A stretch of DNA of 32,000 nucleotides from Massilicoli timonensis (GTDB lineage: Bacteria > Bacillota_I > Bacilli_A > Erysipelotrichales > Erysipelotrichaceae). Under the pieces are notes generated by a model that saw nothing but the letters and a program-made list of their open reading frames with translations, did not search any database and was not told where the DNA came from. Where the stretch lies: contig NZ_LT963433.1 in assembly GCF_900199515.1 (NCBI RefSeq), positions 1 through 32,000 of the forward strand. The letters are read 5' to 3'. Position numbers and translations under genes: made by a program. Below are positions 5,937 to 32,000 of this stretch, piece after piece. Every line of letters begins with the position of its first letter. Within the stretch, counting starts at the first letter, position 1.

Positions 5937-5937
5937 C

Positions 5938-10239: not shown

Positions 10240-10378
10240 GCTCCACCTCATAGTTACTATATGAACAACAGTTGTTATTTAGAAACCATAGATCATTTCA
10301 ATTCTGTCATTCTTCTATCAGCTTCATCATGCTTATCTGTCATGATTTCCTCTTAAAAACGATGATCTCTCTAAATAG

Positions 10379-10399
10379 AAAAAAGCGGAAACCTCCGCT
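10379..10399 (-). terminator. Hairpin terminator between the two PBP genes
   Basis: AGCGGA (10384-10389) pairs with TCCGCT (10394-10399) around a 4-nt loop. On the minus strand it is followed by a T run (the A run at 10379-10383 on the + strand). Confidence 0.5.
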
Positions 10400-10420
10400 T
10401 TTTCTATCAATTCCATACGA

Positions 10421-12592: not shown

Positions 12593-12718
12593 TTGTCTAC
12601 CTCCTTGGCAATGGAAAATGAGAAAGGAAAAGATGTACATCCTTTCCTTTTTGATTATTTTACAATGCTTCTTTGCTATGTACAAGTATTGTTTATCACA
12701 TATTTTTTCAGTAATTTG

Positions 12719-14585: not shown

Positions 14586-17500
14586 TTAAAACAAACTCAT
14601 CTGATTTTCTTCCTGTAAACCGCTTAATACACCCATCGCTTCCATCTTTTTCGCCAGCGTACCGTTTAACAAAGTGCGGTCCATTAAATCCTGCTTTGAC
14701 AAGAACGCACCTTTCTGACGCGCTTCCACGATGCTCAAGGCAACGCTTTCGCCAAGTCCATCAATGCTAGTAAAGGAAGGAATGATGACATTTTGATCAG
14801 CCGGATCGACCACGAACGTCGTTGCCTCTGACTTTTCAAGCGAGATATTGCCGAAGCGATACCCGCGCAGCACCATTTCCAATGCCAGCTCTAAACAAGT
14901 ATAGATATCTTTTTCTTTCTTGGTTACTTCATTTTTGTATTCTGAATTCAGCTTTGCCGTGATTTCTTCCATACGTGAACGAATGGCCGCTTCGCCCTTG
15001 ATCATCGTTTCAATCTCATAGGCATCACAGCGGATCGAGAAAAACATGCAGTAGTAATACTGCGGCTTATGCACCTTGAACCAAGCGATCCGCACTGCCA
15101 TCATGACATAGGCGACCGCATGTCCTTTCGGGAACATGTACTTGATCTTCAAACAGGAATCAATGTACCAATCCTCTACGCCGCACGCCTTCATTTCCGG
15201 GATCCATTCCTCTTTTAAGCCTTTTCCCTTACGCACGCTTTCCATGATCGTAAAAGCGAGCTTTGGCGCCAATCCTTTATGAAGCAGATAAACCATGATG
15301 TCATCACGACAGCCAATCACACTTTTTAACGTGCAGGTACCGCTGTCGATCAAATCCTTGGCGTTGCCCAACCAAACATCTGTCCCATGTGACAAACCGG
15401 ATAGTTTTACCAATTCTTCAAAGGTCGTCGGACGAGTCAATTCCAAAATACCGCGGACAAACGGCGTTCCAAATTCCGGCAAGCCGGCTGCTCCGGTTAC
15501 TTCGTTTGTTTTAGAAGTATCCATCTTTAAGGCTTCTACTCCGGAAAAGATGCTCATCGTTTCCGGATCATTCATCGGAATGCTCTTTGGATCTACCCCG
15601 CTCATGCGCTCCAGCAATTTCATCGCGGTTGGATCGACATGCCCTAAAATATCGAATTTCAAAACATTGTCATGAATGTCATGGAATTCAAAGTGAGTCG
15701 TTTTCCATTCCGCAAACGGGTTGTTGGCGGGATACTGGACCGGAGTAAAATCGTGCACATCCATATCAAGCGGAATCACGATGATGCCGCCGGGATGCTG
15801 CCCGGTCGTACGCTTCACCCCTTCACAGCCCTTCGCCAGACGCAGCTCTTGGGCTCTTCTCAGCATTCCTTCTTTGCCCATTTCCTCTTCATAACGCTTG
15901 ACATAGCCAAACGCCGTCTGCTGGGCGACCGTACCGATCGTGCCGGCGCGAAATACATGATCCTCACCAAATACTTCTTTCGTATAAGCATGTGCATACG
16001 GCTGATAATCGCCGGAGAAATTCAAATCGATATCCGGTACTTTGTCGCCTTCAAAACCTAAGAAGGTCTCAAATGGAATATCCTGCCCATCACCGCGAAT
16101 GGTAGCACCGCAAACAGGACATTTTTTATCCGGCAGATCAAAACCGGAAGCAACGCTGCCATCGGTAAAAAACTCCGAATAATGACAGTGTGGACAGACA
16201 TAGTGCGGCGGCAGCGGATTGACTTCGGTGATCTCTGCCATCGTTGCGACGAAAGAAGATCCTACCGATCCTCTGCTCCCTACCAAATAACCGTCATTTA
16301 ATGATTTTTTCACCAATAAATGTGAAATGTAGTAAACGACATAAAAGCCATGCCCGATGATGCTCTTTAATTCCTTTTCCAGACGTTTTTCGACGATTTC
16401 CGGCAATGGGTCGCCGTAAATGCGATAAGCGTTTTCATAGCATAGTTTTTTCAGCTTTTCATCGGATCCTTCCATATCAGGAGGATACAGGCGATCTTTC
16501 ACCGGATAGATCATTTCGATCTGATCGGCAATCTTGCGGGTATTGGTCACGACCATCTCGTAGGCCTTCGTTTCTCCTACCCACGCAAAAGCTTTCAACA
16601 TCTCATCCGTGGTTAAAAAGTGCTGCTTAGGCGTTTCCAGCTTCCGCCTTTTTTCTGTATTGTAGATGTAAAGCGGATGGCGGGCGCCGCCGATTGCCTG
16701 TGATGAAATATAGATATCGCGGATCATTTTTTCACTTGGATGCACATAATGCGCATCACCGGTTGCCACCAGCGTTTTTCCCAGCGCATCGGCACAGTCG
16801 ATGATATCCCGCAGCATCGCATAAAGACGATCCATATCGGCCATCTTATTGGTTTCCACCAAATGCTTATAGCAGTCGATTGGCTGAATCTCTACATAAT
16901 CGTAAAATTGCATCGCTTCTTTTAACTGGGGAAGTTCTCGCGTTGTAGCCAGATCAAATATTTCCCCGTTCAAACAGCTGGTACCGATCAAAAGATTCCC
17001 ATTGCGGCGGCGCTTTTCAATTTCAAAGCGCGGGATGCGCGGCTCTGCCACCACATTATCGACATTTTTACCGTTATAAGCCAGATAGTTGCAGTGAGAC
17101 AAAGTGACCAGTTCAAACAGTTCTTTTAAGCCTGCGGCGTTTTTTGCCAAAATCGTTACATGCTTTTTACGCACTTTATTAAAACACTGTTCACTTTGCA
17201 TATTCTGCAGATCCTTTAAGGTCTTGATCTCTTTCAGATCATTCAACATATGCAGATATACTTGTGCCAATACCTGTGCATCATAGTCGGCACGATGGGC
17301 GACATCTTCATCATAACGGATCCCATAGCCATGTGCGATCTGTCCCAGCCGATAACCGCGCCGATCACTTTGCAAAGAACGCGCCAGATCCAGCGTATCG
17401 ATGACCGGATTTTGTAATGGCTCCCGTCCCATGCGAATGAGCGCATCATTGAGGAAATTCACGTCGAAACCCGCATTGTGCGCCACTAAAATGCGGTCGC

Positions 17501-18914
17501 CGATAAAGTCCAGTATCTGATCGATCGCCGCTTCGATAGAAGGCGCATCTTTCACGTCTTCCTCGGTAATATTGGTCAGTGAAATCGTAAAAGCGGATAA
17601 GCGCTGCGGCGGTTTGATGAACAGCTGCAGTTCTTTGACGATCGTGCGATCTTTTACGATCTGTCCGCCAAATTCAATGATATGATCATAGCGAGATGAC
17701 AAACCGGTCGTTTCCAAGTCAAAGACACAGTATTCCCCTTTTTCCAGTTCGGTGTCATCGGCATTGCGCACGATTTGTAACTGGGGATCGACCATATTCA
17801 TCTCAATGCCGTAAATCATCTTGAACGGCTTTTCTCTGCCTTTGTTGATGGCGCTCACGCAATGCTGAGCCTTTGGAAATGCCTGAACGACCATATGATC
17901 GGTACAGGCGATCGCATCCATTCCCCAGGCATCGGCCTGTTTGATAAATTCTTCGATGTTGCAGACGCCGTCCATTTCGGAAAGCTTGGTATGCACATGC
18001 AGTTCAACGCGTTTTTCTTTCGCCTGATCCTGCCGCTTCACTTCTTCGATTTCCATGATCGCATCCGGCGTCATGACGAGTTCTCGGGCAAAGGTGTCAT
18101 ATTCCGCTCTGCCATACACATCAATATAACTGCCGGTCTTGATCTTTTCCAGTTCTTCACGGGTCAAAGAACCGCGTTCAAATCGCTTTACAACGATCGC
18201 ATCGCTGTCATCGCCGACCCAAAGCGTCTGAATGCACTTGCCGCTGCGCAGTTCTCTGATCTCACTGTCGAAAACTTTTCCGCGGATCCGGATCCCGTTT
18301 CCCGCTTCTTTGATTTCCGCAATTTGATAAGGAGTATATTGGTCTAACGCCCGTTTCCCCTTCGGCTTGTAGTATTTCGGCTTACTTTCCATGACCGGTG
18401 CCGGCTTTGGGGCTTCCGTCTTTCCTTTTACGGTCATGACTTCCATATGTAATTTTAATTCTTCGATCGCGCTTTCCATCTGGATCCCGCATTTTTTCAA
18501 AAACGCATCTAGGTGGTGGCGATTCAGCACCGCTTGATCACGCTTCTGCGCATCCGCGATACGATATACGATAAAGCGTTCTTCGACTGCCGGCAGCACT
18601 TCATCAAAGATGCGGTACTGTGGATGTAAGGATACAAAATATCCGATATACTCTTTTAATTCCAGCAAGGTGCAGATCCCTTCCTCACAGGTCAGGGTCA
18701 AGTCGATCTGACAGCGCGTTGCTAAGCGCAGTTTGTGAAGCAGCGATTCATACAGGGAAAAAGGGAGCACATGTTTTAGTTTCATGTTGAGTTCCAGCAC
18801 TTTGCTTTTATGCTTCAAGATCGGATTCATCGTAAAAACGGCTTCTTCAAAGCCCGGATATGCCGCAAGCTGCGGATCGATCTTTTGTAAGATTTCGGTT
18901 GCTTTCAGTTCCAT
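14586..18914 (-). CDS. polC: DNA polymerase III PolC-type (Gram-positive replicative polymerase with intrinsic 3'-5' exonuclease)
   Basis: PHP motif HVHTKLSEMDG. Exonuclease motifs FDLETTGLS, HNAGFDVNFL and HRADYDA. Zinc finger CPHCHY...CPVCG. About 1440 aa. The start is probably MELKATEIL at 18914 (GAGG 6 nt upstream); the ORF-track start at 18932 is a TTG. Confidence 0.95.
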   Translation of the reverse strand: MELKATEILQKIDPQLAAYPGFEEAVFTMNPILKHKSKVLELNMKLKHVLPFSLYESLLHKLRLATRCQIDLTLTCEEGICTLLELKEYIGYFVSLHPQYRIFDEVLPAVEERFIVYRIADAQKRDQAVLNRHHLDAFLKKCGIQMESAIEELKLHMEVMTVKGKTEAPKPAPVMESKPKYYKPKGKRALDQYTPYQIAEIKEAGNGIRIRGKVFDSEIRELRSGKCIQTLWVGDDSDAIVVKRFERGSLTREELEKIKTGSYIDVYGRAEYDTFARELVMTPDAIMEIEEVKRQDQAKEKRVELHVHTKLSEMDGVCNIEEFIKQADAWGMDAIACTDHMVVQAFPKAQHCVSAINKGREKPFKMIYGIEMNMVDPQLQIVRNADDTELEKGEYCVFDLETTGLSSRYDHIIEFGGQIVKDRTIVKELQLFIKPPQRLSAFTISLTNITEEDVKDAPSIEAAIDQILDFIGDRILVAHNAGFDVNFLNDALIRMGREPLQNPVIDTLDLARSLQSDRRGYRLGQIAHGYGIRYDEDVAHRADYDAQVLAQVYLHMLNDLKEIKTLKDLQNMQSEQCFNKVRKKHVTILAKNAAGLKELFELVTLSHCNYLAYNGKNVDNVVAEPRIPRFEIEKRRRNGNLLIGTSCLNGEIFDLATTRELPQLKEAMQFYDYVEIQPIDCYKHLVETNKMADMDRLYAMLRDIIDCADALGKTLVATGDAHYVHPSEKMIRDIYISSQAIGGARHPLYIYNTEKRRKLETPKQHFLTTDEMLKAFAWVGETKAYEMVVTNTRKIADQIEMIYPVKDRLYPPDMEGSDEKLKKLCYENAYRIYGDPLPEIVEKRLEKELKSIIGHGFYVVYYISHLLVKKSLNDGYLVGSRGSVGSSFVATMAEITEVNPLPPHYVCPHCHYSEFFTDGSVASGFDLPDKKCPVCGATIRGDGQDIPFETFLGFEGDKVPDIDLNFSGDYQPYAHAYTKEVFGEDHVFRAGTIGTVAQQTAFGYVKRYEEEMGKEGMLRRAQELRLAKGCEGVKRTTGQHPGGIIVIPLDMDVHDFTPVQYPANNPFAEWKTTHFEFHDIHDNVLKFDILGHVDPTAMKLLERMSGVDPKSIPMNDPETMSIFSGVEALKMDTSKTNEVTGAAGLPEFGTPFVRGILELTRPTTFEELVKLSGLSHGTDVWLGNAKDLIDSGTCTLKSVIGCRDDIMVYLLHKGLAPKLAFTIMESVRKGKGLKEEWIPEMKACGVEDWYIDSCLKIKYMFPKGHAVAYVMMAVRIAWFKVHKPQYYYCMFFSIRCDAYEIETMIKGEAAIRSRMEEITAKLNSEYKNEVTKKEKDIYTCLELALEMVLRGYRFGNISLEKSEATTFVVDPADQNVIIPSFTSIDGLGESVALSIVEARQKGAFLSKQDLMDRTLLNGTLAKKMEAMGVLSGLQEENQMSLF

Positions 18915-18940
18915 AACACGCCTCATTTCCAAGTATGTTT

Positions 18941-18949
18941 ATTCTACCA
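18941..18949 (-). promoter_or_regulatory. Candidate extended -10 promoter for polC
   Basis: The minus strand reads TGgTAGAAT (18941-18949). There is no convincing -35. Confidence 0.35.
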
Positions 18950-19091
18950 TTTTTTTGAGTATAAAAAAAGCAAAAGGAAAAAGAATTTACGGCTGATGCT
19001 GCTCGTGTATATAAGGGGAAGTTCCATTCAAAAATGGAGCAGATGCTTCGGTTGGATCGCTGGGAACGTATTTCGGGATAGAAGCGCGGTG

Positions 19092-20078
19092 TTATTTACT
19101 TTTTAGGTTTGTGATATTTTTGATCTGAATGGAATAGGTGCCATCGGCAGCTTCAATGATCTCAAACTTAGCCGGCTGGGAAAGGTATTCCAACGGCAAG
19201 GTAATTTCAATTTCCGCATCGGCAAGCAGTTTCTGGACTTTATTGCTTTTTGCCAAGCGGCAATGCGCGGTTGATACCTTAGCGGCGATCCCAGCATTTT
19301 TTACTTCTTCGACAAATAAATCTTTGGCATAAGGCACTTCCTGAAAAAGGACTTCCGCAACCTCGGCAACGGCGATCTCGCTTTGTGCTTCCACTGCTTC
19401 TTTCATCATCTGCTTCATCTTCGGCAATACTTTGACAACATCCATATCATATTTTTCGCTCATCGTTTTACCGACGGTTTCCATCACTTTCTGCGTTTCT
19501 TCAAATGAAGGGGCAGTTGTGGCTTGTAAATAGCGTGATGCCAGCAGTGTCGTTTCCTTCCCTTGCCATTCGCTTTTTTCTTCTAACACATATAGTGTGA
19601 AATCAGATAATTCTATTACAAAAACAAAGTCAGTTTTCAAGATTCCGTTTGGCAGTACCGTTGTTTCATACAATACGTTGTTCTGCTCTTGATCCGGATA
19701 GCAGGTCATCGCCGACTGATAGTTTTGGTCGATTCCGATCAAATAACGACGGCCTTCTTCTACGATTTCCGAAATCAGAAAGGCACTGTCTTCATAGCGG
19801 GCACATTCTGATTTTTCCGCATATAAGTGTTCTGCCATCCATGTGGAAAACGCATCAAAGGAAATTGTCTTATCACGATACTGCCGCAGCCTCTCTAAAA
19901 AAAGCGAGTTTTCTTGGAAGCTGCCCTGCTTGCGTTTGCGGGCACCGAGCGCTTTGCTTAATTTCCGTTCAAGGAAGGCAGCGGTCTTTTCTTCTTTGAT
20001 GGGCAGCGGTGCTTGGGCACAGACAAGTGTTTGTGAAGCGGTATTTAATAGATGCAACATGCTGTGTTCGATCTGCAT
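19092..20078 (-). CDS. Nucleoid-associated protein (NdpA/YejK-like, NA37 family)
   Basis: 328 aa. The N-terminus (IEHSMLHLLN) and the C-terminus (...EIEITLPLEY...FEIIEAADGTYSIQIKNITNLKSK) match the pattern I recall for Firmicutes NA37-family proteins. AGGAGGG RBS. The assignment is from memory, not a search. Confidence 0.55.
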   Translation of the reverse strand: MQIEHSMLHLLNTASQTLVCAQAPLPIKEEKTAAFLERKLSKALGARKRKQGSFQENSLFLERLRQYRDKTISFDAFSTWMAEHLYAEKSECARYEDSAFLISEIVEEGRRYLIGIDQNYQSAMTCYPDQEQNNVLYETTVLPNGILKTDFVFVIELSDFTLYVLEEKSEWQGKETTLLASRYLQATTAPSFEETQKVMETVGKTMSEKYDMDVVKVLPKMKQMMKEAVEAQSEIAVAEVAEVLFQEVPYAKDLFVEEVKNAGIAAKVSTAHCRLAKSNKVQKLLADAEIEITLPLEYLSQPAKFEIIEAADGTYSIQIKNITNLKSK

Positions 20079-21639: not shown

Positions 21640-22503
21640 TTATTCATCCAATTCTTTTATCAAAATAACGTTGCGTTCGTATTCTTTATTCAATAAGTCT
21701 ATTTCCACATAAGTCATTAACATATCATAAAGTTCTGTTTGTCCTGGCTGGACACATGTCGTCTCATCAATATAATTCATCCATTTACCCTTTTGTGTAT
21801 CAGGGCATTCATGAATATGTCCATGTAAGGACAACAGTGGTTGTTTTTCTTTTAAGAAATTATAAATATCAACTGAACCAATATCCAAATCTTGATATAA
21901 CAATTGTCCTAATTGTAAATTTGCTGGAGGCATGTGCATTACATAAACAGTTTTTCTTGGATTTATAGATGTGGGTAGGTTATTTAAAACATCACTCATA
22001 TGTGGTAATTCTGCTAGAGAATATACTAACCAATCATAAATTTTATTATATCCATACATATTAGATATTCCTACCACAGGACTTAACTGTTGTTGAGGAA
22101 TATAATCTTTCTCTGTGATTACTCTGTCTTTGCATCCAAATGGGTGATCTAAAATATAGTTCATACCAATAAATTCATAATCATTAATTATCACTTTTTT
22201 ACCAGCTATGTTATAAATATTATCATATTTTCCACATACACTATCAAACATCTCATCTAAAGCTTGCAAGTCATCATTACCAAGCATACAAAGATAACTA
22301 ATTTGATGGTCTTTCAGTTCTTTGAAATAATCATTTAAAAAACCTTTGATAAATAATGGTTGTTCTTCATGTCTATTACATTGCTTTGGAAGCATATCTC
22401 CGCCATTAACAATAACATGAATGTCTTTATTTATTGCAACTTCTAATATTTTTTTATATTTATCTTTATCTCCATGTAAATCTGTAACATATAAAATTTT
22501 CAT
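21640..22503 (-). CDS. Calcineurin-like metallophosphoesterase
   Basis: Full motif set in order: VTDLHGD, NGGDM, LGNDD, VMHMPP, LHGHIHE. AAGGAG RBS. 58 nt downstream of the hipA-like gene on the same strand. Confidence 0.85.
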   Translation of the reverse strand: MKILYVTDLHGDKDKYKKILEVAINKDIHVIVNGGDMLPKQCNRHEEQPLFIKGFLNDYFKELKDHQISYLCMLGNDDLQALDEMFDSVCGKYDNIYNIAGKKVIINDYEFIGMNYILDHPFGCKDRVITEKDYIPQQQLSPVVGISNMYGYNKIYDWLVYSLAELPHMSDVLNNLPTSINPRKTVYVMHMPPANLQLGQLLYQDLDIGSVDIYNFLKEKQPLLSLHGHIHECPDTQKGKWMNYIDETTCVQPGQTELYDMLMTYVEIDLLNKEYERNVILIKELDE

Positions 22504-22561
22504 TTTCAGTTACTCCTTTCCTCATTTTAATAAAAGGAAGGACTTGAATCCTCCCAAATTT

Positions 22562-23722
22562 TTAGCATTTCTCCAATTGCTTTTTTCTATCAATAACTTT
22601 ACCAATTCTTAGATTGATTTGTTGAACAATTTCTTGAATTCTTGTCTCATCCATTAGTGGATTTATTTTAAGTATTTCTTCTACTTCTTTTTCAAATCCT
22701 TCAAGTTTTGATGCGTCCAGCCAAGACAAATCATCCACTAATTCTAACTGTTCATCTGGATAAGGTTTAAATGGTTTAGATTTGTATATACTTCCAATTG
22801 CAGTTGTTGGCTGTGTAGCCCATAAACAACTTCCACTGTCAAATATAGGGGCAATTCCAATCCATTCCAGTGTGTCCACATTTCTGATTGCCCCAAAGTT
22901 ACGATAATGACGATCATAATTTGCAATAATATAGTCACATACAATCATTTTATCAATTTGTAACTTGGCATTTGGTATATTAAGAGAGTTACATGCTTCT
23001 AAAAAATGAATGTATAAAGAATCGTTTCCTCTTTGCTTGATAATACGATCAATATAATAAGCAGATACTAGCTCTTCATTTGTATTTACCATCGTAGGGC
23101 AAGCAGAATAATACATACCATTTTCTTGAATTAATTCATAAGGAACATAGTCTTCGTTCTTAAGTATTCTTTTATATAGCTTTGTTGCGATGATTTCGTT
23201 AAAAGGTTCTTGATTATTGAAACTATTTCCACCTTTGATAAGATAACGAGTATTGTTTATGATTTTCCATTTCTTTTTCAAGTTTCCATCACTAGAGTTA
23301 TCTGGGCTAAAAATATCTAAATCATCAGAATAATGAATCTGTCCCATTAACAGTTTTCCCATATCTTCACTAAAATCATTTTCAAAAAAATTAATATCAT
23401 TCCACTCAATTTTAGAATTTTCTTCTTTAATCCAATATTGATCACTTAAACTAAGACCAAAGCATCTTTCAAGCAATTCTACAGAAGAATGAATATCCAT
23501 TTCTGCCATTACTTCATTAAATCTGCTTCTAGAGGCAGGGATGGAACGATCTTTCCACCAGTTATTCAATGCTTTTCTAGTGATACCTGTTTTGTATTCA
23601 ATGATTCCTAAAGGAGCATAGTCAGGATGAATGACACGATTGATTTTTGCAACTGTATGTGTTTCGTTATCGTATGAAAACTCTAAAACTTCAATGTTTT
23701 TGTTCATAAGAATATAGTTCAT
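22562..23722 (-). CDS. HipA-like Ser/Thr kinase (HipA_C-type)
   Basis: Catalytic loop NYDRHYRNFG (22898-22915 covers DRHYRN), equivalent to HipA DxHxxN. Mg-binding-like APIFDSG. N-terminal SIPASR and GLSLSDQYW motifs typical of clostridial HipA-like proteins. AAAGGAG RBS. Confidence 0.75.
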   Translation of the reverse strand: MNYILMNKNIEVLEFSYDNETHTVAKINRVIHPDYAPLGIIEYKTGITRKALNNWWKDRSIPASRSRFNEVMAEMDIHSSVELLERCFGLSLSDQYWIKEENSKIEWNDINFFENDFSEDMGKLLMGQIHYSDDLDIFSPDNSSDGNLKKKWKIINNTRYLIKGGNSFNNQEPFNEIIATKLYKRILKNEDYVPYELIQENGMYYSACPTMVNTNEELVSAYYIDRIIKQRGNDSLYIHFLEACNSLNIPNAKLQIDKMIVCDYIIANYDRHYRNFGAIRNVDTLEWIGIAPIFDSGSCLWATQPTTAIGSIYKSKPFKPYPDEQLELVDDLSWLDASKLEGFEKEVEEILKINPLMDETRIQEIVQQINLRIGKVIDRKKQLEKC

Positions 23723-23866: not shown

Positions 23867-25695
23867 TTAATTCTCTTTACCGAAGGTTAATTCTAATAGC
23901 TCCGCGGCAATACTTTCACTGCACACACGCATGAGATTATCCTCAGCATCTTCTTTTTCCAATAAATTTGTACTGCCATACCACACAATATTTCTATCAA
24001 TGATACAATAGCGTTCACAATAATCCTCCATTAAATTCATGTGAAAACCGGCATTACGCATTCGCTCATGAAGCTGGAGCCAATAGGACGTATCACCAAA
24101 ATGATATTCATCAGGCTTCCATGTAACGATTACAACCTTTAATCCTTCGGCTTGCTTTTCACTAAGTAGGTGAATAAGATCATTTACTTTTTGAGTGCTG
24201 ATTCTTGGGCTGGGATATAATTACTTCGTTTTTAGCTGTAAGCGAGTCGTTTTGATAAACATCGAAGTATTGGTCAATATCATAAATAGAATTAAGAGGA
24301 CTATTCATTTGAGAGTAGTTTTCTTCTGTGCAAATGGCGTAACCGATTTGTTTATATGCCTTCAATCGTTTATGGTACATATTTTCAAACATTGGAATAT
24401 GACCGTCCACATAATCATAAATAATTACATCTTCTTTTCCTTCATAATCGCGATTCAAGCGTCCCGCGTATTGCTCGACAACACTTTTCCATGCCACCGG
24501 AGTTGCCATGATTAGCGTATCTTATCGTGAAAAGTCGATGCCTTCACCAATTAAACTTCCAGTCGCAACTAAAATCATACTTTCCTCTTTAGAAATCTGA
24601 TTCATTTGTTTGAGGATTTCTTTATGTTCCTTTTTAGAATTTTTTCCGGATAATAAGAATATATGATCGGCATAGCCTTTTAAGCGATGAAAGAGTTTTT
24701 GAGAGTGATCAACATATTTGGAGAGAATAACCGGAGGGTGACCCGAATCGATACATCGCTTTACATCTTTAACGATCATATCATCACGATCAGGATTCTC
24801 TCTTAAAATAGCATAGGCTTCATTAGGGTGCATCTTCTCATGATTAAATCTAGGTGCTACGGATCTTGTAAATCTTGGATAAATCCAATGGGCGATACCT
24901 TGCTCCTTAGCTCTTTCTTTGGAGGTGTATTTATAGCGAATAGGTCCTAACAGCATAAAGTAGATTTTTTCTAAGCCATCTCCGCGGAAAGGGGTTGCTG
25001 TAACACCATATACATATCGTGCTTTTACTTTTTCAAGAATATCAACAATAGTATTGGAAGCTGCGTGATGACATTCATCTAAAATAACCATTCCATATTC
25101 TTTCAATTTTGGGTGAAATTCTCCCTTTTTGCATAATGAACCAGCCATGGCAATATCAATAATGCCGGTGGAAGAATCATGAGAGCCATGTATTTTACCA
25201 ATTAAACTTTTCCTTGTCTTTATTTCTTCATGAAGGTGTTGTGTAGGTTGTGAGTGCTTCATCAATACTTAAAAAGCGGGTTAAGGCATTTTCCCATTGC
25301 TCGATAAGCGCGGAAGATTGTATGAGTATAAGCGTATTCACTTTTTTCTGGTAATCATATCGCAGCAAACAACTGTTTTCCCAAAAGCCGTGGCAGCATG
25401 AAGGATACCGTTGTCTTTTTTCTCCATTACTTCGATGGCGGAAACTTGTGAAGATTTTAATTGGCCTTTAAAGGTTACGCGTATTTGCCTTCCTTGGCAG
25501 CGTTTGTCTTGAAGATCTATTTTTATGTTTTCACTATGGCAACGACTCATTAGATCATCAAACAATCCTCTGGGAATACGGATATATCCATTCATATCTT
25601 TACCAAGATAAATATAACGGGCCTGATCAAAATTGGAGAGTCCCATAGCTTGATTTTTATAGAAGATGGGGTTGCTGAAGGCAGCCATTTCGATA
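23867..25695 (-). pseudogene. HKD(PLD)-nuclease / DEAD-DEAH (SF2, ResIII-like) helicase fusion gene, 5'-truncated and multiply disrupted
   Basis: Four ORF fragments are colinear with one helicase. Motifs in order: Walker A ATAFGKT, DECH (ILDECHH), TATP, QYAGRLNR, and a degenerate C-terminal PLD-like domain (CERYCIIDRNIVWYGSTNLL). Lesions: the IS at the 5' end; an A-run frameshift at 25342-25347; an indel at about 25230-25265; an in-frame TAA at 24522-24524; a C-run frameshift at 24207-24209. Confidence 0.8.
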
Positions 25696-25757
25696 TGATC
25701 CCACTAAAGTAGACACACAAATAAAACAAAAGCGTGTCTATGGAGGTGGGATTTTCT

Positions 25758-26474
25758 ATGAGAAGGAAACCAAAAATATCAGTAGAAGAAAAAGTGAATA
25801 TATGTGAACAATATTTAAGCCGAACAAAAAGCATGAGGGAACTCGTAAGTGAAAGTGGAATCAGTAAAGAAACGATAAGAAGATGGATAAACAAGTATCA
25901 AAGATATAGATCAATCGTTTTTCAACCAAAAGCACATAACCAAAAATATACAAAGCAATTCAAACAAGAAGTAGTCGAAGCCTATTTGCGAGGAGAAGGA
26001 ACACCAGAATCGCTTTCCGTTAAATACAATATACCTGCATATTCTACTGTGCGAAATTGGATAATCAAGTATAATAACCTTGAAGAACTTAAGGACTATG
26101 ATCCTAAGCCGGAGTTTTATATGAAAAAACACAGTAGAAAAACAACTTATGAAGAACGAATGGAAATTGTGGATCATTGCTTAGCCCACAATAAGAATTA
26201 CAAAGGAACAGCAGAAATATTTGATGTATCCTATACACAGGTGTATCAATGGGTAAACAAGTATTTAGATACAGGAAAAGAAGGACTGATCGACAAACGC
26301 AGAATACGCAAGAGTGAGGAACAATTAAGTGAAACGGAAATTCTACAACGCAAAGTAAAGATACTTGAAAAGCAATTGAAAGAAAAGGAAATGGAGAATG
26401 AACTATTAAAAAAAGTACAGGAAATCGAAAGGAGGCGGTATTCTCCAAAACAAAAAACGAAGCAAAATACTTAG
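25758..26474 (+). CDS. IS3-family transposase OrfA (HTH DNA-binding, leucine-zipper C-terminus)
   Basis: MRRKPKISVEEK start with GGAGGTGGG 9 nt upstream. Two HTH-like segments are present (RELVSESGISKETIRRWINKY and TAEIFDVSYTQVYQWVNKY), followed by the heptad region ILQRKVKILEKQLKEKEMENELLKK. Confidence 0.85.
   Translation: MRRKPKISVEEKVNICEQYLSRTKSMRELVSESGISKETIRRWINKYQRYRSIVFQPKAHNQKYTKQFKQEVVEAYLRGEGTPESLSVKYNIPAYSTVRNWIIKYNNLEELKDYDPKPEFYMKKHSRKTTYEERMEIVDHCLAHNKNYKGTAEIFDVSYTQVYQWVNKYLDTGKEGLIDKRRIRKSEEQLSETEILQRKVKILEKQLKEKEMENELLKKVQEIERRRYSPKQKTKQNT
26408..26415 (+). promoter_or_regulatory. Programmed -1 ribosomal frameshift site (A AAA AAA G)
   Basis: The A7 run at 26408-26414 reads TTA AAA AAA GTA in the orfA frame. 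The -1 frame is open from 26414 into orfB and encodes ...KYLAIKELHEERNYSIQWMCKQLGV. Confidence 0.7.
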
Positions 26475-26518
26475 CAATTAAAGAACTTCATGAGGAAAGG
26501 AATTATAGTATCCAGTGG

Positions 26519-27373
26519 ATGTGCAAGCAATTGGGTGTTTTATGTTCTGCCTACTATAAATGGATAAATCGAACGATTCCTGAGAATGAACAGGAAGATA
26601 TGGAATTAGCAGGAATCATAAAGAAGTACCATCAGAAGTATGGAGGGATCCTAGGATATAGAAGAATGCGTATGTTCATCAACCGTAACTGCAATAAGAA
26701 CTATAATATAAAACATATTCATAGGATCATGAATATTCTTGGTATTCACGCAAAGATAAGAAGAATCAGAATTGGTTGTACCGTATCGAATAAGGCAGAT
26801 CAGAAAGTGGAAAATCTATTGCATCGCAATTTTGAAGCATCAGCACCGAATGAAAAAAGGACGACAGATGTAACAGAATTCAAAGTACCTCATTCAACAG
26901 AAAAGATATATCTTTGTGCCTTTTTGGATTTGTATGATCGTACCATTATCGCATGGGCTATTAGCAATCATAAGGACAATAGACTAGTACAAGATACCTT
27001 TCATAAAGCGATTCTGCAAAATCCGGATGCACATCCTCTCTTTCATTCAGATCGAGGATATCAATATACAAGTCCTATGTTTCGAAATAAACTAAAGGAA
27101 TATGGAATGAAGCAATCGATGTCAAGAGTGGCGAGCTGCATAGATAATGGAGTGACAGAAGGATTATGGGGAATCATCAAGACAGAGATGTATCAAATGT
27201 ATGAGATATATGATAAAGGGATCTTAATAGAAGCGATTAGGAGCTATATCAATTTTTATAATCAGCAGCGTTATCAGGCGCGTTATCATTCAAAAACACC
27301 GATGGAAGTAAGAGCGGAAGCCATGAACATGACAAAGCCTAAACAATATCCGATTATATCCGATTGCATTTAA
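26519..27373 (+). CDS. IS3-family transposase OrfB (DDE/rve integrase core), expressed as an OrfAB fusion
   Basis: DDE triad context: TDVTEF, HSDRGYQYTS, DNGVTEGLWGIIKTE. The frame is -1 relative to orfA and open back to 26414. Confidence 0.85.
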   Translation: MCKQLGVLCSAYYKWINRTIPENEQEDMELAGIIKKYHQKYGGILGYRRMRMFINRNCNKNYNIKHIHRIMNILGIHAKIRRIRIGCTVSNKADQKVENLLHRNFEASAPNEKRTTDVTEFKVPHSTEKIYLCAFLDLYDRTIIAWAISNHKDNRLVQDTFHKAILQNPDAHPLFHSDRGYQYTSPMFRNKLKEYGMKQSMSRVASCIDNGVTEGLWGIIKTEMYQMYEIYDKGILIEAIRSYINFYNQQRYQARYHSKTPMEVRAEAMNMTKPKQYPIISDCI

Positions 27374-27487
27374 TCCAAGAATAGCGAAGTATAAGGAATC
27401 ACTGAACAAGTTAAAAGCCCAATCAGCATAATACCAATTGGGCTAAAAATTTTATTTATTTTGTGTGTCCTCTTGACAGGGACCGGA

Positions 27488-27676
27488 TCAGTTCATGAGT
27501 TCTACAAATTGTACTTCGATATTTTTATTTATCGCTTGCTTTAATACGCCTTCTTCTATGTTTTTCTTTTGGCTGGGATTATGGAATACGATGATTTGAT
27601 CATCATCTTTTAATAATTCTATTCCCACTAATCCGGCTTCATTTATGTTTTCATAATCAATTAAAAACCATATCAT
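27488..27676 (-). pseudogene. PIN/NYN-like domain N-terminal fragment, terminated at the IS terminus
   Basis: MIWFLIDYENINEAG...IIVFHN...VQFVELMN resembles the first strand-helix units of PIN-like/NYN domains (hhhIDxENh). The expected downstream acidic motifs are absent. The stop codon TGA (27488-27490) is the first three nt of the IS inverted repeat. GAGAGG RBS lies 10 nt after the upstream gene. Confidence 0.4.
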
Positions 27677-27686
27677 TTTATACCTC

Positions 27687-30308
27687 TCAAATCAAATACT
27701 CTTCTAATTTTTTTGCAATATGCAAAATCATTGGAAGAATTGTCTCTTTATTCTCATATTGAATGGAAATCTTTCTTAGATTATGAGTATCTAATACACA
27801 GTCTTTTTCTTTTTCTGAATATTGATTTGCTCTATGAATCGGATAAATTTCAATAATGTTTCGATGCAAAAAAGCATCATTGCTATTAAGCTTACTATTT
27901 TCTAATAAAAACGATTTATCATCTCCCGAAGGTTTTTCGGCTAATGAGTAAAAAACACTTTCAAACCTAAATGCACCATGTTCACTTTTGAATCGTTTTT
28001 TTTCTTTTTTATTTAGACTAAACATAGGAACATAATCAGGGACCTCATCATTTGTTCGAATACGGATAAGATTAATATTGTTATGATTTCTTAAGTTAAT
28101 TGTATAATTTAATTTTTCATTGATAATAAATTCTTTTTTTTCTTCAGTAGCTGTTTTGTTCATTTTTTCAATGTTTCTATTTGAAATACCATTTATAATT
28201 TTTCTAGTAGTACCATTAGCTTCAATGAAAACATGATACAAACATTTTGAATCCAAATTTTCAAACCAATTCATAATAAATTTATCATCAGGCTTTATTG
28301 TTAGATTTCTTTCTTCCTTTAGAAGTTGAACTAGTTTCAAAGGAAACTCATAATAAGGGCAGTTAAACATTTCTACTTTTTCTTCTTTTGTTGATTTATG
28401 AACTAAGATAATCTGCGTTTCAACATAGATTTCTTTTTTTTGAAGATCGCATGAAAGAATAATTGGAAAAGGCAGGGTGTTGATTCCTTTTAATAATTTT
28501 TTATAATTAATTACATGAATACCCACTAATAACGGCAATGGTTTATATTTAGATATTTTAGGTTTTATTGGATTTAAAAATCCTAATTGACGATAAGCAT
28601 CTAAAATAGCTCCTTTTACAGCAAAATTACATCTTTCTCCCTTCTTTTTCTCCACTGCATCATATGATTCTTTAGTGATAAATTGAGTAAGCCTTCCTGT
28701 CAATGCAAAGCCTGTCCTTAATGCATTCTTCGGATCTAACTTTGTAGCAGTGATATTGTTCTCTTCATCTTTATAGAAGTCTTGATTATGAATAATTATA
28801 ATAGACATGGTAACATTTTTAGAAATGGAAATTTGCTCTTGTATTTCATTCACCCTTCTACTATAACCTTCCAAATTGTCATTTTTTTTAGGATTTCTGC
28901 ATTCCAATGCATCTCCTAAATTATTTAAACTATGAGATTGAATTAAAACATCACTATATTTGAAATGATTTTTTAATATATTTACTATTTCCTCATTTAA
29001 TATTTCTAAACCAGAAGAATACCATACTTCAAATGATAGATTGCGATCATTCTGTATAGCTTTTATATTACTTATGAATTCTTCTCTAATCATTTCTTCA
29101 TCTGAAATATCAAAATTACCATCAAAATACAAATTGCAATAGGTAGAATTATTATCTACCTTATCTGCCTGTAATTTTTCTTTCTTTGTTGAATATAAGC
29201 TTAATTTCTCTTTTATGTCTTCGAATAGTTGTAAACGATCATTATGGGTGATTCCAGCGTCCATATTATGCATTTTGGAAGTTCCATCATTCATGCCGTA
29301 TTCAAACGGTACATAAGCGTCATAACCTTCTACACCTCTCATAAATTTTTGGGGATCTGTAATGATGTTTTCAAAATTGTGATCCTTGTGTAATTCCCCA
29401 TATATAATTTTATAGCGATTTTTATCTGCATAAAGCCAGTCTACGCATCTTTTTGAAGACTGATATTTTACTCTCAATGGTAGAAGTTTATTACCAATAG
29501 TACGCAAATAGACACTTTTTTTATCAGGAATATACGGGGTATTTTTACTTTTGTTTTCGGTAATCCATCTTCGAGAGGATAAATTTATGTTTAAAAATAG
29601 TTCATTGGAAGGCGGTATTGTTTGAACGCTAAAATTAGCAACAAATGAGAAGGGCTTTATTTCTATACCATTTTCAGTATGTATACATGGATCAGTTACG
29701 ATTTCGTTTTTACCGGAGTACAACCATTGTAATTTTTCGTTATTAACAATTACCTCTGTATTACGCAATTGATTGACTGCTAATAATGGTAATAAGGAAT
29801 ATGCGTCATTATCACAAACTTTTTCCTCATCAAAAAGGATAACTGTTTCTTTATAAGAACAGTTTTCAAAATCTTTTTGATTAATTTCATCTATGATTTT
29901 TTGAGCATATTTTTTGACATTGTCAGAGTTATTCCTTTTTTGTTCAAGTTCTGTCTCTTCAATATAAAATGCAGAAATCCATTCTTTTATAATTTTACAA
30001 ACGAGATTTATAGCAATTTCTTGAGTTGAAACAATCCAACGAGAATCATCTACTCCCCATCTAACAGGCTTCATATTTACTACTCCGGGAAAATATGAAA
30101 TAAATAAATTCTTTAAAGAATTTAGAGGCAAATTGTGAAATTCTTTTATAAATCTTCCAGAAAATCCATTTCCATTTTTAGACAATTCTTCAAGATGGAT
30201 CAATTTTTCTTTTATAGAACTTGGCAGCTTTAAATAATAAACTTCAGCTTGAATTTTTTTATCTAATTTTATTACAAGCGGAATAATGTAATTCTTTTGT
30301 GTTTGCAT
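27687..30308 (-). CDS. MID/PIWI-like protein, candidate pPIWI-RE family (prokaryotic Argonaute relative)
   Basis: 873 aa with an ordered motif series resembling the Argonaute MID-PIWI region. DPKNALRTGFALTGRLTQFI (28677-28736) compares with K...GxxTQcv. NFAVKGAILDAYRQLGFLN (28572-28628) compares with NxxxKiNxKlGGxN. LLVGIHVINY (28503-28532) compares with hhGxDVxH. HVFIEANG compares with hhxRDG. The C-terminal ILPMILHIAKKLEEYLI compares with vPxPxyYAhxLa. Also IRIRTNDEVP. The gene follows directly and is coupled to a DinG-like helicase gene, as in pPIWI-RE islands. This was not verified by any search. Confidence 0.5.
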   Translation of the reverse strand: MQTQKNYIIPLVIKLDKKIQAEVYYLKLPSSIKEKLIHLEELSKNGNGFSGRFIKEFHNLPLNSLKNLFISYFPGVVNMKPVRWGVDDSRWIVSTQEIAINLVCKIIKEWISAFYIEETELEQKRNNSDNVKKYAQKIIDEINQKDFENCSYKETVILFDEEKVCDNDAYSLLPLLAVNQLRNTEVIVNNEKLQWLYSGKNEIVTDPCIHTENGIEIKPFSFVANFSVQTIPPSNELFLNINLSSRRWITENKSKNTPYIPDKKSVYLRTIGNKLLPLRVKYQSSKRCVDWLYADKNRYKIIYGELHKDHNFENIITDPQKFMRGVEGYDAYVPFEYGMNDGTSKMHNMDAGITHNDRLQLFEDIKEKLSLYSTKKEKLQADKVDNNSTYCNLYFDGNFDISDEEMIREEFISNIKAIQNDRNLSFEVWYSSGLEILNEEIVNILKNHFKYSDVLIQSHSLNNLGDALECRNPKKNDNLEGYSRRVNEIQEQISISKNVTMSIIIIHNQDFYKDEENNITATKLDPKNALRTGFALTGRLTQFITKESYDAVEKKKGERCNFAVKGAILDAYRQLGFLNPIKPKISKYKPLPLLVGIHVINYKKLLKGINTLPFPIILSCDLQKKEIYVETQIILVHKSTKEEKVEMFNCPYYEFPLKLVQLLKEERNLTIKPDDKFIMNWFENLDSKCLYHVFIEANGTTRKIINGISNRNIEKMNKTATEEKKEFIINEKLNYTINLRNHNNINLIRIRTNDEVPDYVPMFSLNKKEKKRFKSEHGAFRFESVFYSLAEKPSGDDKSFLLENSKLNSNDAFLHRNIIEIYPIHRANQYSEKEKDCVLDTHNLRKISIQYENKETILPMILHIAKKLEEYLI

Positions 30309-32000
30309 TTATTTTTCTCCTTTCTTCAGAGCTTCGTAAAATGGCTCATATAATGTTCTAGCAACAATTCCATTTTTATCATCATCCATTATTTCTTCCA
30401 GATATTTTTCCAGTTCTTTCAAAGTGTCAAAACTATTTGGATCAGGAGCATTAAATGCTCCATCTACAAAATATATTTTAGGATACTTATTTTTCAGTGT
30501 AGCTCCAATCCTACACAAGCGACCGAATATCTGTTGGATTGTAACAAATAAACTTGCAACAATATCTTTTTTATCCTCATCTAGTAATGTTGAAAGACTA
30601 TAGGAAGGATAGTTTAATAATGAATATTTTCCATAAGCTTCTTTTCTCATATCTTCAATGATATTTATTAAATTTTCATATCCTTTGGAAGAAAACTTAT
30701 TCATAATATATCCATTGACTCTTTGCACATGAATTTGAAAATCACTTGGATCATTTAACGGACGGACAAGAAAGAATACAGTATCAAATGTTGCATTTCC
30801 TAGGGGATCAACAATATTAAAGCCTCTTTCAATTACACAGGCAGGGGCGACTAAAATACCTTCTTTAAAAGAAGTGATGTCTCTTCTTTGAATTACTGCT
30901 TGTGCTTCATCTTCTATTTCTGCACTATCCGGATTTAAGCGATAAACATGACAATTTGGCTGCTCATTTTTTAAAATTTTAGATATTTCTTCTTGTGCTA
31001 TTTTGCATTGCTCGTAACTATTAACAATAACAAGAATATTCTCCTCATTTCTTACACATTTTATGAATGTATTTGATTTTTCTTTAATTAGTTTTTTTAA
31101 ATTATCCTCTTTTTTCTTATCATCAAAGATTCCTGAAACTCTTGTTTCGCTCCTTAAATTGATAATTTCAGAGTTTGCGATAAAATCGCGTTTTATTTGC
31201 TCTGCTTCAATAATGTAATCAACAGTATCGCTCACATGAAATTTATTAGATCCGGGGATAAACCCGGTTCCTGACAGCAATAGAACATTGGCACCTAAAG
31301 AAGAACCATCATCATCTAAAACCAAATAAGGCATTTTCATAGCAAGTGCGCGTCCAAAAGCAAATTGTTTTTTAATATATAAGTCATCGTCTCTTTTATA
31401 CTCAATAGATAATGTATTTCCTATTGGCGAACTAGGCAAAATCTTTTGTTGTTGTACAAAGGAACGATTTAATATTTCTCGTAAATCCATTGGAAGATCA
31501 TTTATTTCTCCAACAGAAATTGAAATAGTATGATACACTTGTTCAAAAGCGATTACCTTTAATAAGAAAAGTAATCTTTTTCTCATTTCATTACTAAAAT
31601 CTTCAATTTCTGTTTTAATCTCATTTTCTATTTGTTCTCGCGAGAGTTTTTCCGTTTTATTTGTTGTAAAACTATTTTCAACAATCGCATCCACTAAATT
31701 TTTCTCAATATCGGAGAACTTAACATCTGAATTTTCTACTGTCTTCAATAATTGATATAAACTTGTATTACGATCTGCAAATTTGAAGAAAGAAGATAAT
31801 GAATCCCAAAATATATCTGATAAAGTGTTTTTATCTTTTTTTCTTTCTTCTCGTTTTAGCTTTTGTAATAAACTAAATCCGGAAAAACTTTTTATTGTAG
31901 AGTCTGACCAACCGGTTAGATTTTCGTTTAAATCTGTACCAATTGAAACCATTAAAATTTGAAATCTGTAGAGATTCCAATATAATTCTTTTTGATTATT
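30309..32000 (-). CDS. DinG/XPD-like SF2 helicase, C-terminal part (5' end outside the window)
   Basis: The reading frame stays open upstream of the listed ATG at 31952 through to position 32000. Visible motifs are VLLLSGTG (III-like, 31263-31274), ILVIVNSYEQ (IV-like), GILVAPACVIERGFNIV (V), FDTVFFLVRPLNDPSD (compare DinG hhIxkLPFxxPxDP) and QQIFGRLCR (VI, 30510-30536). Walker A and DEAH must lie beyond the window. The stop TAA abuts the ATG of the next gene. Confidence 0.65.
   Translation of the reverse strand, partial: NNQKELYWNLYRFQILMVSIGTDLNENLTGWSDSTIKSFSGFSLLQKLKREERKKDKNTLSDIFWDSLSSFFKFADRNTSLYQLLKTVENSDVKFSDIEKNLVDAIVENSFTTNKTEKLSREQIENEIKTEIEDFSNEMRKRLLFLLKVIAFEQVYHTISISVGEINDLPMDLREILNRSFVQQQKILPSSPIGNTLSIEYKRDDDLYIKKQFAFGRALAMKMPYLVLDDDGSSLGANVLLLSGTGFIPGSNKFHVSDTVDYIIEAEQIKRDFIANSEIINLRSETRVSGIFDDKKKEDNLKKLIKEKSNTFIKCVRNEENILVIVNSYEQCKIAQEEISKILKNEQPNCHVYRLNPDSAEIEDEAQAVIQRRDITSFKEGILVAPACVIERGFNIVDPLGNATFDTVFFLVRPLNDPSDFQIHVQRVNGYIMNKFSSKGYENLINIIEDMRKEAYGKYSLLNYPSYSLSTLLDEDKKDIVASLFVTIQQIFGRLCRIGATLKNKYPKIYFVDGAFNAPDPNSFDTLKELEKYLEEIMDDDKNGIVARTLYEPFYEALKKGEK

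Follow-up and report, generated by a model that had tools for sequence, protein, structure and literature searches.

We analysed a 32,000-nucleotide stretch of the Massilicoli timonensis genome (the window; contig NZ_LT963433.1, positions 1 to 32,000), at the right-hand end of which lie three tightly coupled minus-strand open reading frames (ORFs); all three, with their spacings, are as reported in a preliminary description made from the sequence alone. A canonical pPIWI-RE operon ('Argonaute type III' in PADLOC) enters the window at this end, with its distal two-thirds inside. Reading along the minus strand, the ORFs are the 3′ part of a DinG/XPD-type helicase gene (30309..32000, residues 470–1032 of 1032), the gene for a pPIWI-RE protein of 873 amino acids (aa; 27687..30308), and the surviving first 62 codons of a PIN7-type (PIN/NYN-like) gene (27491..27676). 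The C-terminal end of the helicase reads ...GGAGAAAAATAA, with last codons GGA GAA AAA TAA, and ATG CAA ACA of the 873-aa ORF follows directly, the stop at 30309–30311 abutting the ATG at 30308 with a gap of 0 nucleotides (nt) as previously stated; the ribosome-binding site of the 873-aa ORF, GGAGAA, lies within these final helicase codons. The 62-aa ORF starts 10 nt past the 873-aa stop (TGA, 27687–27689), was correctly described as having a ribosome-binding site of its own (GAGAGG), and has its stop at 27488–27490. The helicase frame, which was read by hand, has no stop up to base 32000, and the window edge cuts the gene, as had been assumed; a 547-aa helicase ORF starting at the ATG at 31952 was rejected as a complete gene, since this is merely the first in-frame ATG and the frame is open beyond it.

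The locus was extended upstream using six fetched contigs that are 99.97–100% identical to the window across 9.5–14.3 kb, and on these contigs lies the restriction endonuclease (REase) gene that had been expected upstream, outside the window. The full operon encodes, in order, the REase (385 aa), a DinG/XPD-type iron–sulphur (Fe-S) helicase (1032 aa), and the pPIWI-RE protein (873 aa), corresponding to 5748–6905, 6902–10000 and 10001–12622 on one strand in the coordinates of one of the near-identical contigs (L001), with a 4-nt overlap between REase and DinG and a 0-nt gap between DinG and PIWI. The pPIWI-RE gene neighbourhood proposed in the preliminary description is confirmed, in its canonical REase-DinG-PIWI order. 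In the assembly collection, 153 blocks index the exact 873-aa protein, and it is carried by 23 of the 23 contigs that were read.

The 873-aa protein is almost certainly a member of the pPIWI-RE (Argonaute-related) family, as had been suspected, and profile searches identify it along its whole length. Five Pfam models describe the pPIWI-RE system (PF13111, PF18157, PF13032, PF18154 and PF18155), of which three match this protein: PF13111 (pPIWI_RE_X; 97.6 bits against a cut-off of 30.5, E 1.2e-27), PF18157 (MID_pPIWI_RE; 51.0 bits against 26.6, E 2.3e-13) and PF13032 (RNaseH_pPIWI_RE; 55.4 bits against 25, E 1.1e-14). These define, all on the minus strand, domain X (aa 18–370, 29199..30257), which replaces the N/PAZ lobe of Argonautes, a MID domain (aa 476–581, 28566..28883), and a PIWI (RNase H-fold) domain (aa 593–872, 27693..28532), the PF13032 match covering aa 692–872. 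The PADLOC model PprPIWI matches end to end (aa 8–870, E 5.6e-73), and the RefSeq entry (WP_102265914.1) is named "pPIWI_RE module domain-containing protein". Just 208 relatives (E ≤ 0.001) emerged when 1.84 billion representative proteins were searched exhaustively with HMMER, and the family is therefore rare.

Conservation within the pPIWI-RE protein was read from an alignment of 60 diverse family members. The family takes its name from an absolutely conserved Arg and Glu in an extension of the PIWI β-sheet (PMC3702460); E820 (codon 27849–27851) is present in 60/60 sequences, R749 (28062–28064) in 58/60 and R751 in 56/60, and we identify E820 and R749/R751 as the apparent eponymous pair, the Arg being either of the two arginines. 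Residues of the MID pocket (D525, K527, R531, R539, Q542, F543, D570, R573 and Q574) are conserved in 54 to 60 of the 60 members, and MID positions of this kind were mapped by the describers of the family to the cleft where the guide's 5′ terminus is bound (PMC3702460). The motifs quoted in the preliminary description are all present, and alignments of homologues place most of them on family-conserved residues: in GRLTQFI, R539 is found in 54/60, Q542 in 58/60 and F543 in 60/60, and in the C-terminal LPxxLHxAxxLEEY, P859 is found in 60/60, H863 in 56/60 and Y871 in 57/60.

An AlphaFold2 model of the 873-aa protein, built on the family alignment, has a predicted local distance difference test score (pLDDT) of 91.0 and a predicted template modelling score (pTM) of 0.90. 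When this model was compared with the PDB using Foldseek, all 50 matches listed were full-length PIWI or Argonaute proteins, including sponge and mouse PIWI, CbAgo, KmAgo, TtAgo, MpAgo and human Ago2; E values range from 4.2e-16 for the best match (probability 1.00) to about 1e-12, with identities of 8–12% and template modelling (TM) scores of 0.35–0.55 across 770–1040 alignment columns. The predicted structure thus bears out the PIWI relationship first read from short motifs. Searching the PDB with a profile of the family gave no meaningful match, the best being to an unrelated protein at E 0.1, and by sequence there appears to be no solved structure of a close pPIWI-RE relative.

In an RNase H fold, the first catalytic Asp stands at the end of strand β1 and the second follows strand β4. 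In the model of the 873-aa protein, β1 corresponds to residues 593–600 (PLLVGIHV) and a later strand to residues 691–696, followed by A697-N698-G699, and both catalytic Asp positions are substituted, by H598 (codon 28515–28517) and N698 (28215–28217). The hhVGIHV and hhIEANG motifs that the preliminary description had picked out are present, but what it overlooked is that these are the catalytic Asp positions with the aspartates replaced. Among the 60 relatives, Asp occupies column 598 in two and column 698 in 26, with both sites retained in two (P0057 and P0083), which is in keeping with the D525/D610 pair that PsPIWI-RE requires (PMC10991935), and the describers of the family noted that catalytic residues survive in a mere subset of its members (PMC3702460). 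The residue pattern of the one characterised member found, PsPIWI-RE of Pseudomonas stutzeri (D525, D610, R639 and E718 of that protein), occurs in none of the family proteins retrieved, so that H598 and N698 were placed through the alignment and the predicted strands. The RNase H catalytic residues appear to be absent from the 873-aa protein, which would place it in the inactive subset and leaves its family membership unaffected. Because H598 and N698 replace both catalytic aspartates, the PIWI domain is predicted to be catalytically inactive, and the protein is probably a guide-loaded sensor, not a slicer.

The helicase residues within the window form an arch-like helical region and, bearing motif VI, the second RecA-like domain, and beyond the window edge the near-identical contigs supply domain Z, the Walker A motif, four Fe-S cysteines and the DExD box. 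The PADLOC model PprDinG matches the window part at E 3.8e-51 and the full 1032-aa protein at E 6.4e-89. Across 27 DinG homologues, the Walker A motif G245-K246-S247-T248 (GSGKST, which was found upstream, with the DExD box, where it had been proposed to look) and the DExD box D423-E424 are kept, and cysteines C323, C343, C369 and C375, positioned between the two, are invariant (27/27). A four-cysteine Fe-S signature defines the DinG/XPD helicases. The LVRPLNDPSD segment contributes R882, P883, P887 and D889, and QQIFGRLCR, which is motif VI, contributes Q959, G962, R963 and R966, each present in all 27 homologues. The N-terminal match to pPIWI_RE_Z is slightly below the Pfam cut-off (24.8 bits against 25). 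The DinG-type assignment made previously is upheld by PprDinG, the Fe-S cysteines and motif VI, although the Pfam profiles through which it was to be recognised, DEAD_2 and Helicase_C_2, do not match the protein. A structural model of the helicase half, in which the helical region forms aa 1–190 of the window fragment, is of mediocre quality (pLDDT 69) and gave weak Foldseek matches to CasDinG, XPD and bacterial DinG at E about 1e-3; owing to these two features we use it as supporting evidence only. With Walker A, the four cysteines and motif VI all present, the DinG helicase is apparently intact and of the Fe-S type. RefSeq still names both the helicase, WP_102265916.1, and the REase, WP_102265918.1, "hypothetical protein".

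The first gene of the operon is predicted to encode a zinc-ribbon PD-(D/E)xK REase. The zinc ribbon (C213-x2-C216...C230-x4-C235) lies N-terminal to a PD-(D/E)xK nuclease core consisting of E268, D299/D302 and D316-A-K318, and both are invariant in 13 homologues. The PADLOC models pPIWI_RE_REase and PprRE each match at E 1.2e-5, and the REase homologues at two related loci (L007 and L008) match Pfam PF18154 at E ≤ 1e-5. A promoter-like sequence, TTGACA-17-TAAAAT (sigma-70-like, 11/12), is located approximately 135 nt upstream of the REase start. Between this site and the REase start codon there is a 13-bp AT-rich hairpin followed by a T-run (L001 5696–5724), which could be an attenuator, a regulatory stem or a chance match.

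A genome scan with the 873-aa protein alone found no relatives, and the scan was repeated with the family alignment to yield 38 loci. These are mostly in Clostridia and other Bacillota, with distant ones in Actinomycetota, Cyanobacteria, Chloroflexota and Verrucomicrobiota. Four independent relatives with approximately 45% identity have the same triad with abutting genes, and the REase, DinG, PIWI order recurs in loci L007 to L050. DinG is directly upstream of the PIWI gene in 36/38 loci, the two exceptions being L029, where the PIWI ORF is sub-threshold, and L035, where there is only a PIWI fragment of 294 aa; a REase-like ORF of about 360–430 aa overlaps the DinG start in almost every locus with a contig that is long enough. 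The related triads sit among restriction, CRISPR and Abi genes, and the gene following PIWI varies from locus to locus, including AbiD, Cas6, a nitroreductase, a transposase and a methylase.

Several of these loci depart from the common plan. DinG is split into two ORFs at L011 (4950–7999), L017 (4933–7986) and L046 (4968–8059), and is intact on L012, the sister contig of L011; this points to ongoing decay of the triad or to assembly errors. At L045 (1764–3008) and L047 (1917–3005), the Amycolatopsis and Saccharothrix loci, a zinc-ribbon region is retained by the ORF that stands in place of the REase, but this ORF apparently lacks the D..D...DxK motif that is seen in all other loci, and these REases may be degenerate. 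A distant branch of the family (uncultured Clostridia, 'Ca. Scatousia') is represented by L032 (10469–12301), L043 (5192–6994) and L033 (4706–5165). In this branch (L032 and L043) the gene next after PIWI, at –3 or +3 nt and about 600 aa long, encodes a UvrD-like superfamily 1 (SF1) helicase fused to a PDDEXK_3 nuclease and matches GajB-like PADLOC models; L032 keeps a REase-like gene upstream of DinG, the L043 contig begins inside DinG, and loci bearing the fusion may be a four-gene variant. Other genes closely following PIWI encode a 516-aa HEPN_LA2681 protein 58 nt downstream at L030 (10506–12053, from a Bacillota metagenome-assembled genome), a 439-aa protein without a family match 26 nt downstream at L034/L046 (10519–11835), and a PDC-M19B-like protein 91 nt downstream at L047 (9150–10757). 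These close fourth genes may be accessories of the triad or simply neighbours in a defence island.

The end of the operon at our locus adjoins an IS3-family insertion sequence (IS; 25696..27490, plus strand) with terminal inverted repeats and two genes, orfA (25734–26474; Pfam HTH_28/HTH_Tnp_1) and orfB (26519–27373; Pfam rve/HTH_21/rve_2). The inverted repeat, I1, is located at 25692–25731 and 27450–27489, and the imperfect IS ends both start TGATCC; the right-hand repeat opens with the very three bases, TGA, that serve as the stop of the 62-aa ORF (27488–27490). The 62-aa ORF aligns with positions 1–52 of the 103 in the Pfam PIN7 profile (PF18475) with 33.0 bits, against a cut-off of 34, and retains only the first acidic motif (IDYEN), not a complete PIN domain with its full acidic catalytic set. 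In the hunt for a full-length PIN7 allele free of the IS, a search of the protein collection with the 62 aa returned only copies of 62 aa or shorter, and tblastn of the stump against plasmids gave no match; two DNA-pattern scans of metagenomes for its 3′ end found not one copy of the stump sequence itself and so do not bear on such an allele. No PIN7 homologue follows the PIWI gene in the 38 related loci. We saw no target-site duplication at the IS3-family element, the flanks (...GATA and GTTC...) having been read directly, and when the flanks were joined in silico the reading frame passed from ...ELMN into YRNGCLQQPHLL and a stop, with no continuation of the PIN domain. Because there is no target-site duplication and the joined flanks do not continue the PIN domain, insertion of the IS was probably followed by a deletion. 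We conclude that the 62-aa PIN7 ORF is, to judge from its sequence, a dead remnant outside the conserved system. An extra PIN/NYN-like gene was part of the preliminary description, and its PIN likeness, here a half-match to PIN7, and its position outside the triad stand; the suggested role as an effector does not, since it is an IS-truncated stump with no counterpart in the 38 loci.

Massilicoli timonensis (Erysipelotrichaceae) carries the pPIWI-RE operon on a defence island that is low in G+C and was acquired horizontally. The AT-rich island noted beforehand is real, with the G+C content falling beyond roughly 21 kb: it is approximately 29–31% at 21–24 kb and 28–32 kb of the window, against 42–49% in the first 20 kb, and the island extends over at least 19 kb at roughly 29–36% G+C in a host of about 45%. 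It contains a large serine recombinase, two IS elements, and the PADLOC candidate defence genes PDC-S27, PDC-M03A and PDC-S10. Upstream of the window on the same contig (L001 198–5420) are the large serine recombinase, which has 613 aa, an ATPase_2/DUF234 protein of 461 aa (PDC-S27, E 1.6e-58), and, just upstream of the REase, a 427-aa HTH_38 transposase-like protein in a patch of 39–43% G+C that may be another mobile element. On the other side of the operon, four ORFs in a row (116, 247, 109 and 64 aa; window 23867–25688, minus strand) make up a broken superfamily 2 (SF2) helicase gene (ResIII/Helicase_C), which the Cas3, PbeA and type IV mREase models of PADLOC match weakly; the gene has no 5′ end because the IS3-family element abuts it, and probably represents a second defence gene in ruins. 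Beyond it (21640–23722, minus strand) are two intact genes that may be a kinase/phosphatase pair: one encodes a 386-aa protein that weakly matches a HipA_C-like kinase (PDC-M03A, E 3.9e-14), the other a 287-aa calcineurin-like metallophosphatase (PDC-S10, E 3.2e-9). The core genes bordering the island (14586–20078, minus strand) encode a 1448-aa alpha subunit of PolC-type DNA polymerase III and a nucleoid-associated NA37 protein of 328 aa, and no tRNA genes marking the island border were found inside the window. The exact NA37 protein is present on 182 contigs and the exact 873-aa PIWI protein on 101, and this difference hints that the island is absent from some strains.

The features established here are family membership, the integrity of the domains, the order and coupling of the genes, the loss of catalytic residues, and the island context. 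As to how the triad might operate, we infer guide binding, guide chemistry, helicase recruitment, DNA degradation and a role in defence, and we lean, with some reserve and by analogy, towards a sensor-helicase-nuclease mechanism. The pPIWI-RE protein would bind a short guide strand with its 5′ end in the conserved MID pocket, and would pair with invading plasmid or phage nucleic acid without slicing it, opening an R-loop or D-loop. This structure would load the 5′–3′ DinG helicase, which together with the PD-(D/E)xK REase would unwind and degrade the invader DNA. The guide could be either RNA or DNA, both of which PsPIWI-RE bound (PMC10991935). The mechanism is that of the R-loop restriction model first proposed for pPIWI-RE by Burroughs and colleagues (PMC3702460), and the DdmDE system of Vibrio cholerae now lends it a characterised precedent (bioRxiv 10.1101/2024.05.10.593530).

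Several observations weigh against this mechanism. The family was correctly said to be little characterised: in the literature searched, biochemical work amounts to one paper devoted to a single PIWI-RE protein, and no experiment shows a pPIWI-RE triad protecting against phage or plasmids. PsPIWI-RE, the subject of that paper, is an active RNA-guided DNA nuclease, and the phenotype of its knockout was ciprofloxacin sensitivity and a defect in cell division rather than a loss of immunity (PMC10991935). The catalytic positions H598 and N698 were placed by alignment columns and predicted secondary structure only, and the REase scores just below the cut-off for PF18154 (23.3 bits against 26.1). 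The surroundings are also decaying, with an IS, the broken helicase gene, the PIN7 stump, and DinG split at L011, L017 and L046, and the triad may be silent or disappearing.

One alternative explanation builds on this last observation: the operon would be a relic that looks intact but is not expressed or does not function, on an island that IS elements are eroding. The IS3-family element adjoins the operon and truncates the next gene, the SF2 helicase gene downstream is in four pieces, a second transposase-like gene (HTH_38) is found just upstream of the REase, DinG is split in three relatives, and the single terminator candidate is a terminator-like hairpin within the IS end. All three ORFs of the triad are nonetheless full length, the helicase and nuclease have kept every catalytic or ligand motif, about 100 contigs from many samples carry the exact 873-aa protein, and a strong sigma-70-like promoter match precedes the REase; we consider a relic unlikely. 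A role for the triad in chromosome maintenance (finishing replication or decatenation) in place of immunity, of the kind put forward for PsPIWI-RE and some classical Argonautes, is the sole alternative suggested by experiment. Deletion of piwi-re in Pseudomonas stutzeri increased sensitivity to ciprofloxacin and disturbed cell division, a joint role of the three proteins in replication was suggested by the authors (PMC10991935), and similar ciprofloxacin effects have been reviewed for other Argonautes also (PMC11555693). This is a poor fit with a mobile, sporadic island, where housekeeping functions are not expected: our locus lies in a low-GC region that also contains a serine recombinase and IS elements, the family occurs rarely and patchily (208 representatives among 1.84 billion proteins), related triads sit amid restriction, CRISPR and Abi genes, and the PIWI protein here is without the residues that PsPIWI-RE needs for cleavage. 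We regard chromosome maintenance as distinctly unlikely.

The remaining alternatives place the effector activity elsewhere, and the sequence contradicts both. If the PIWI protein were itself the nuclease, as an RNA-guided DNA slicer or a DNA-guided RNA slicer, DinG and the REase would be accessory; PsPIWI-RE does cleave single-stranded DNA with RNA guides, and D525A or D610A abolishes this activity (PMC10991935), but the 873-aa protein has H598 and N698, the first Asp is missing in 58/60 relatives, and the describers of the family noted catalytic residues in a mere subset (PMC3702460), making self-slicing highly improbable here. The other possibility is a variant with four genes, the PIN7 RNase being, now or formerly, a dedicated effector of the pPIWI-RE system. 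This would accord with the position of the PIN7 ORF 10 nt past the PIWI stop with its own ribosome-binding site, and with coupled fourth genes elsewhere (the UvrD-like plus PDDEXK_3 genes of L032 and L043, and HEPN_LA2681 of L030). We give such a variant very little credence, as the gene is cut at about half of the PIN7 domain with its stop in the IS repeat and only the IDYEN motif left, a PIN7 homologue follows 0/38 related triads, and the gene after PIWI changes with each locus, as in defence islands generally. A broader proposition, which we regard as doubtful, is that triads, in common with other Argonaute systems, are modular, with a sensor-helicase-nuclease core joined by lineage-specific, translationally coupled fourth effector genes. 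Equally tentative is the assignment of such genes as a PIN7 RNase at this locus before the IS arrived, UvrD-PD-(D/E)xK in two lineages of Clostridia, and HEPN in L030; the dead PIWI protein would then be a recruiter resembling DdmE of Vibrio cholerae. Ordinary clustering in defence islands explains the variable neighbours of the triads at least equally well.

The sensor-helicase-nuclease mechanism can be set beside the closest known systems, the nearest being the pPIWI-RE three-gene system itself, which was defined by comparative genomics by Burroughs, Iyer and Aravind in 2013 (PMC3702460) and with which the Argonaute type III of PADLOC has been equated (PMC11333966). Our locus has the same REase-DinG-PIWI order with overlapping or abutting ends, the same layout of the PIWI protein (domain X, MID, and PIWI with the invariant Arg/Glu), the same features of DinG (a Cys-rich Fe-S region, a large helical insert and the N-terminal domain Z), the same REase with a zinc ribbon ahead of a PD-(D/E)xK core, and the same patchy, horizontally transferred distribution. 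There is no difference in kind, this member belonging to the inactive majority (H598, N698), and it differs in that the REase and Z domains are slightly sub-threshold in Pfam and that the PIN7 stump and the IS trail the operon. The locus is therefore an expected member of a family already recognised by RefSeq and PADLOC, not a discovery, and its apparent novelty, the PIN gene, is an artefact of IS insertion. It nevertheless adds a compact and intact locus, from an Erysipelotrichaceae commensal of the human gut that can be cultivated, to what is the least understood branch of the prokaryotic Argonautes. PsPIWI-RE (Huang et al. 2022, PMC10991935) is of the same family, is encoded after dinG with a 4-nt overlap, and binds short DNA and RNA oligonucleotides; it keeps D525 and D610 and cleaves its targets, whereas the 873-aa protein has H and N in the columns that, to judge from the family alignment and the predicted strands, correspond.

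Two further systems share elements of this organisation. Type IV-A CRISPR-Cas likewise combines a guide-bearing, non-cleaving complex with a DinG-family helicase (CasDinG), and the modelled helicase half finds its closest structural match in CasDinG (7xf0_A), albeit a weak one (E 1.2e-3, TM about 0.26, with a model pLDDT of 69). The guide carrier of type IV-A is a Cascade-like multi-subunit CRISPR RNA complex, not an Argonaute-like protein, and has no REase partner, and there is no CRISPR array here. DdmDE of Vibrio cholerae (bioRxiv 10.1101/2024.05.10.593530; PMC11795196) follows the same logic, in that a dead Argonaute-like sensor is combined with a DinG/XPD-like 5′–3′ SF2 helicase and a PD-(D/E)xK nuclease; an inactive Argonaute with a 5′-phosphorylated DNA guide recruits the plasmid-degrading helicase-nuclease, and the DdmD helicase "closely resembles E. 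coli DinG" (bioRxiv 10.1101/2024.05.10.593530). DdmD fuses helicase and nuclease, whereas here they are two separate genes, and its insertion domain is without an Fe-S cluster, whereas the helicase here has four invariant cysteines. DdmE is a 'long-C' classical Argonaute, whereas the pPIWI-RE family profile matches no PDB chain at E < 0.1, and DdmE is absent among the 50 Foldseek matches listed for the 873-aa model. We treat the likeness to DdmDE as a working analogy and not as family membership. With an apparently active helicase and nuclease accompanying an apparently dead PIWI protein, the locus makes a sensor-recruitment model of the DdmDE type testable in the pPIWI-RE family.

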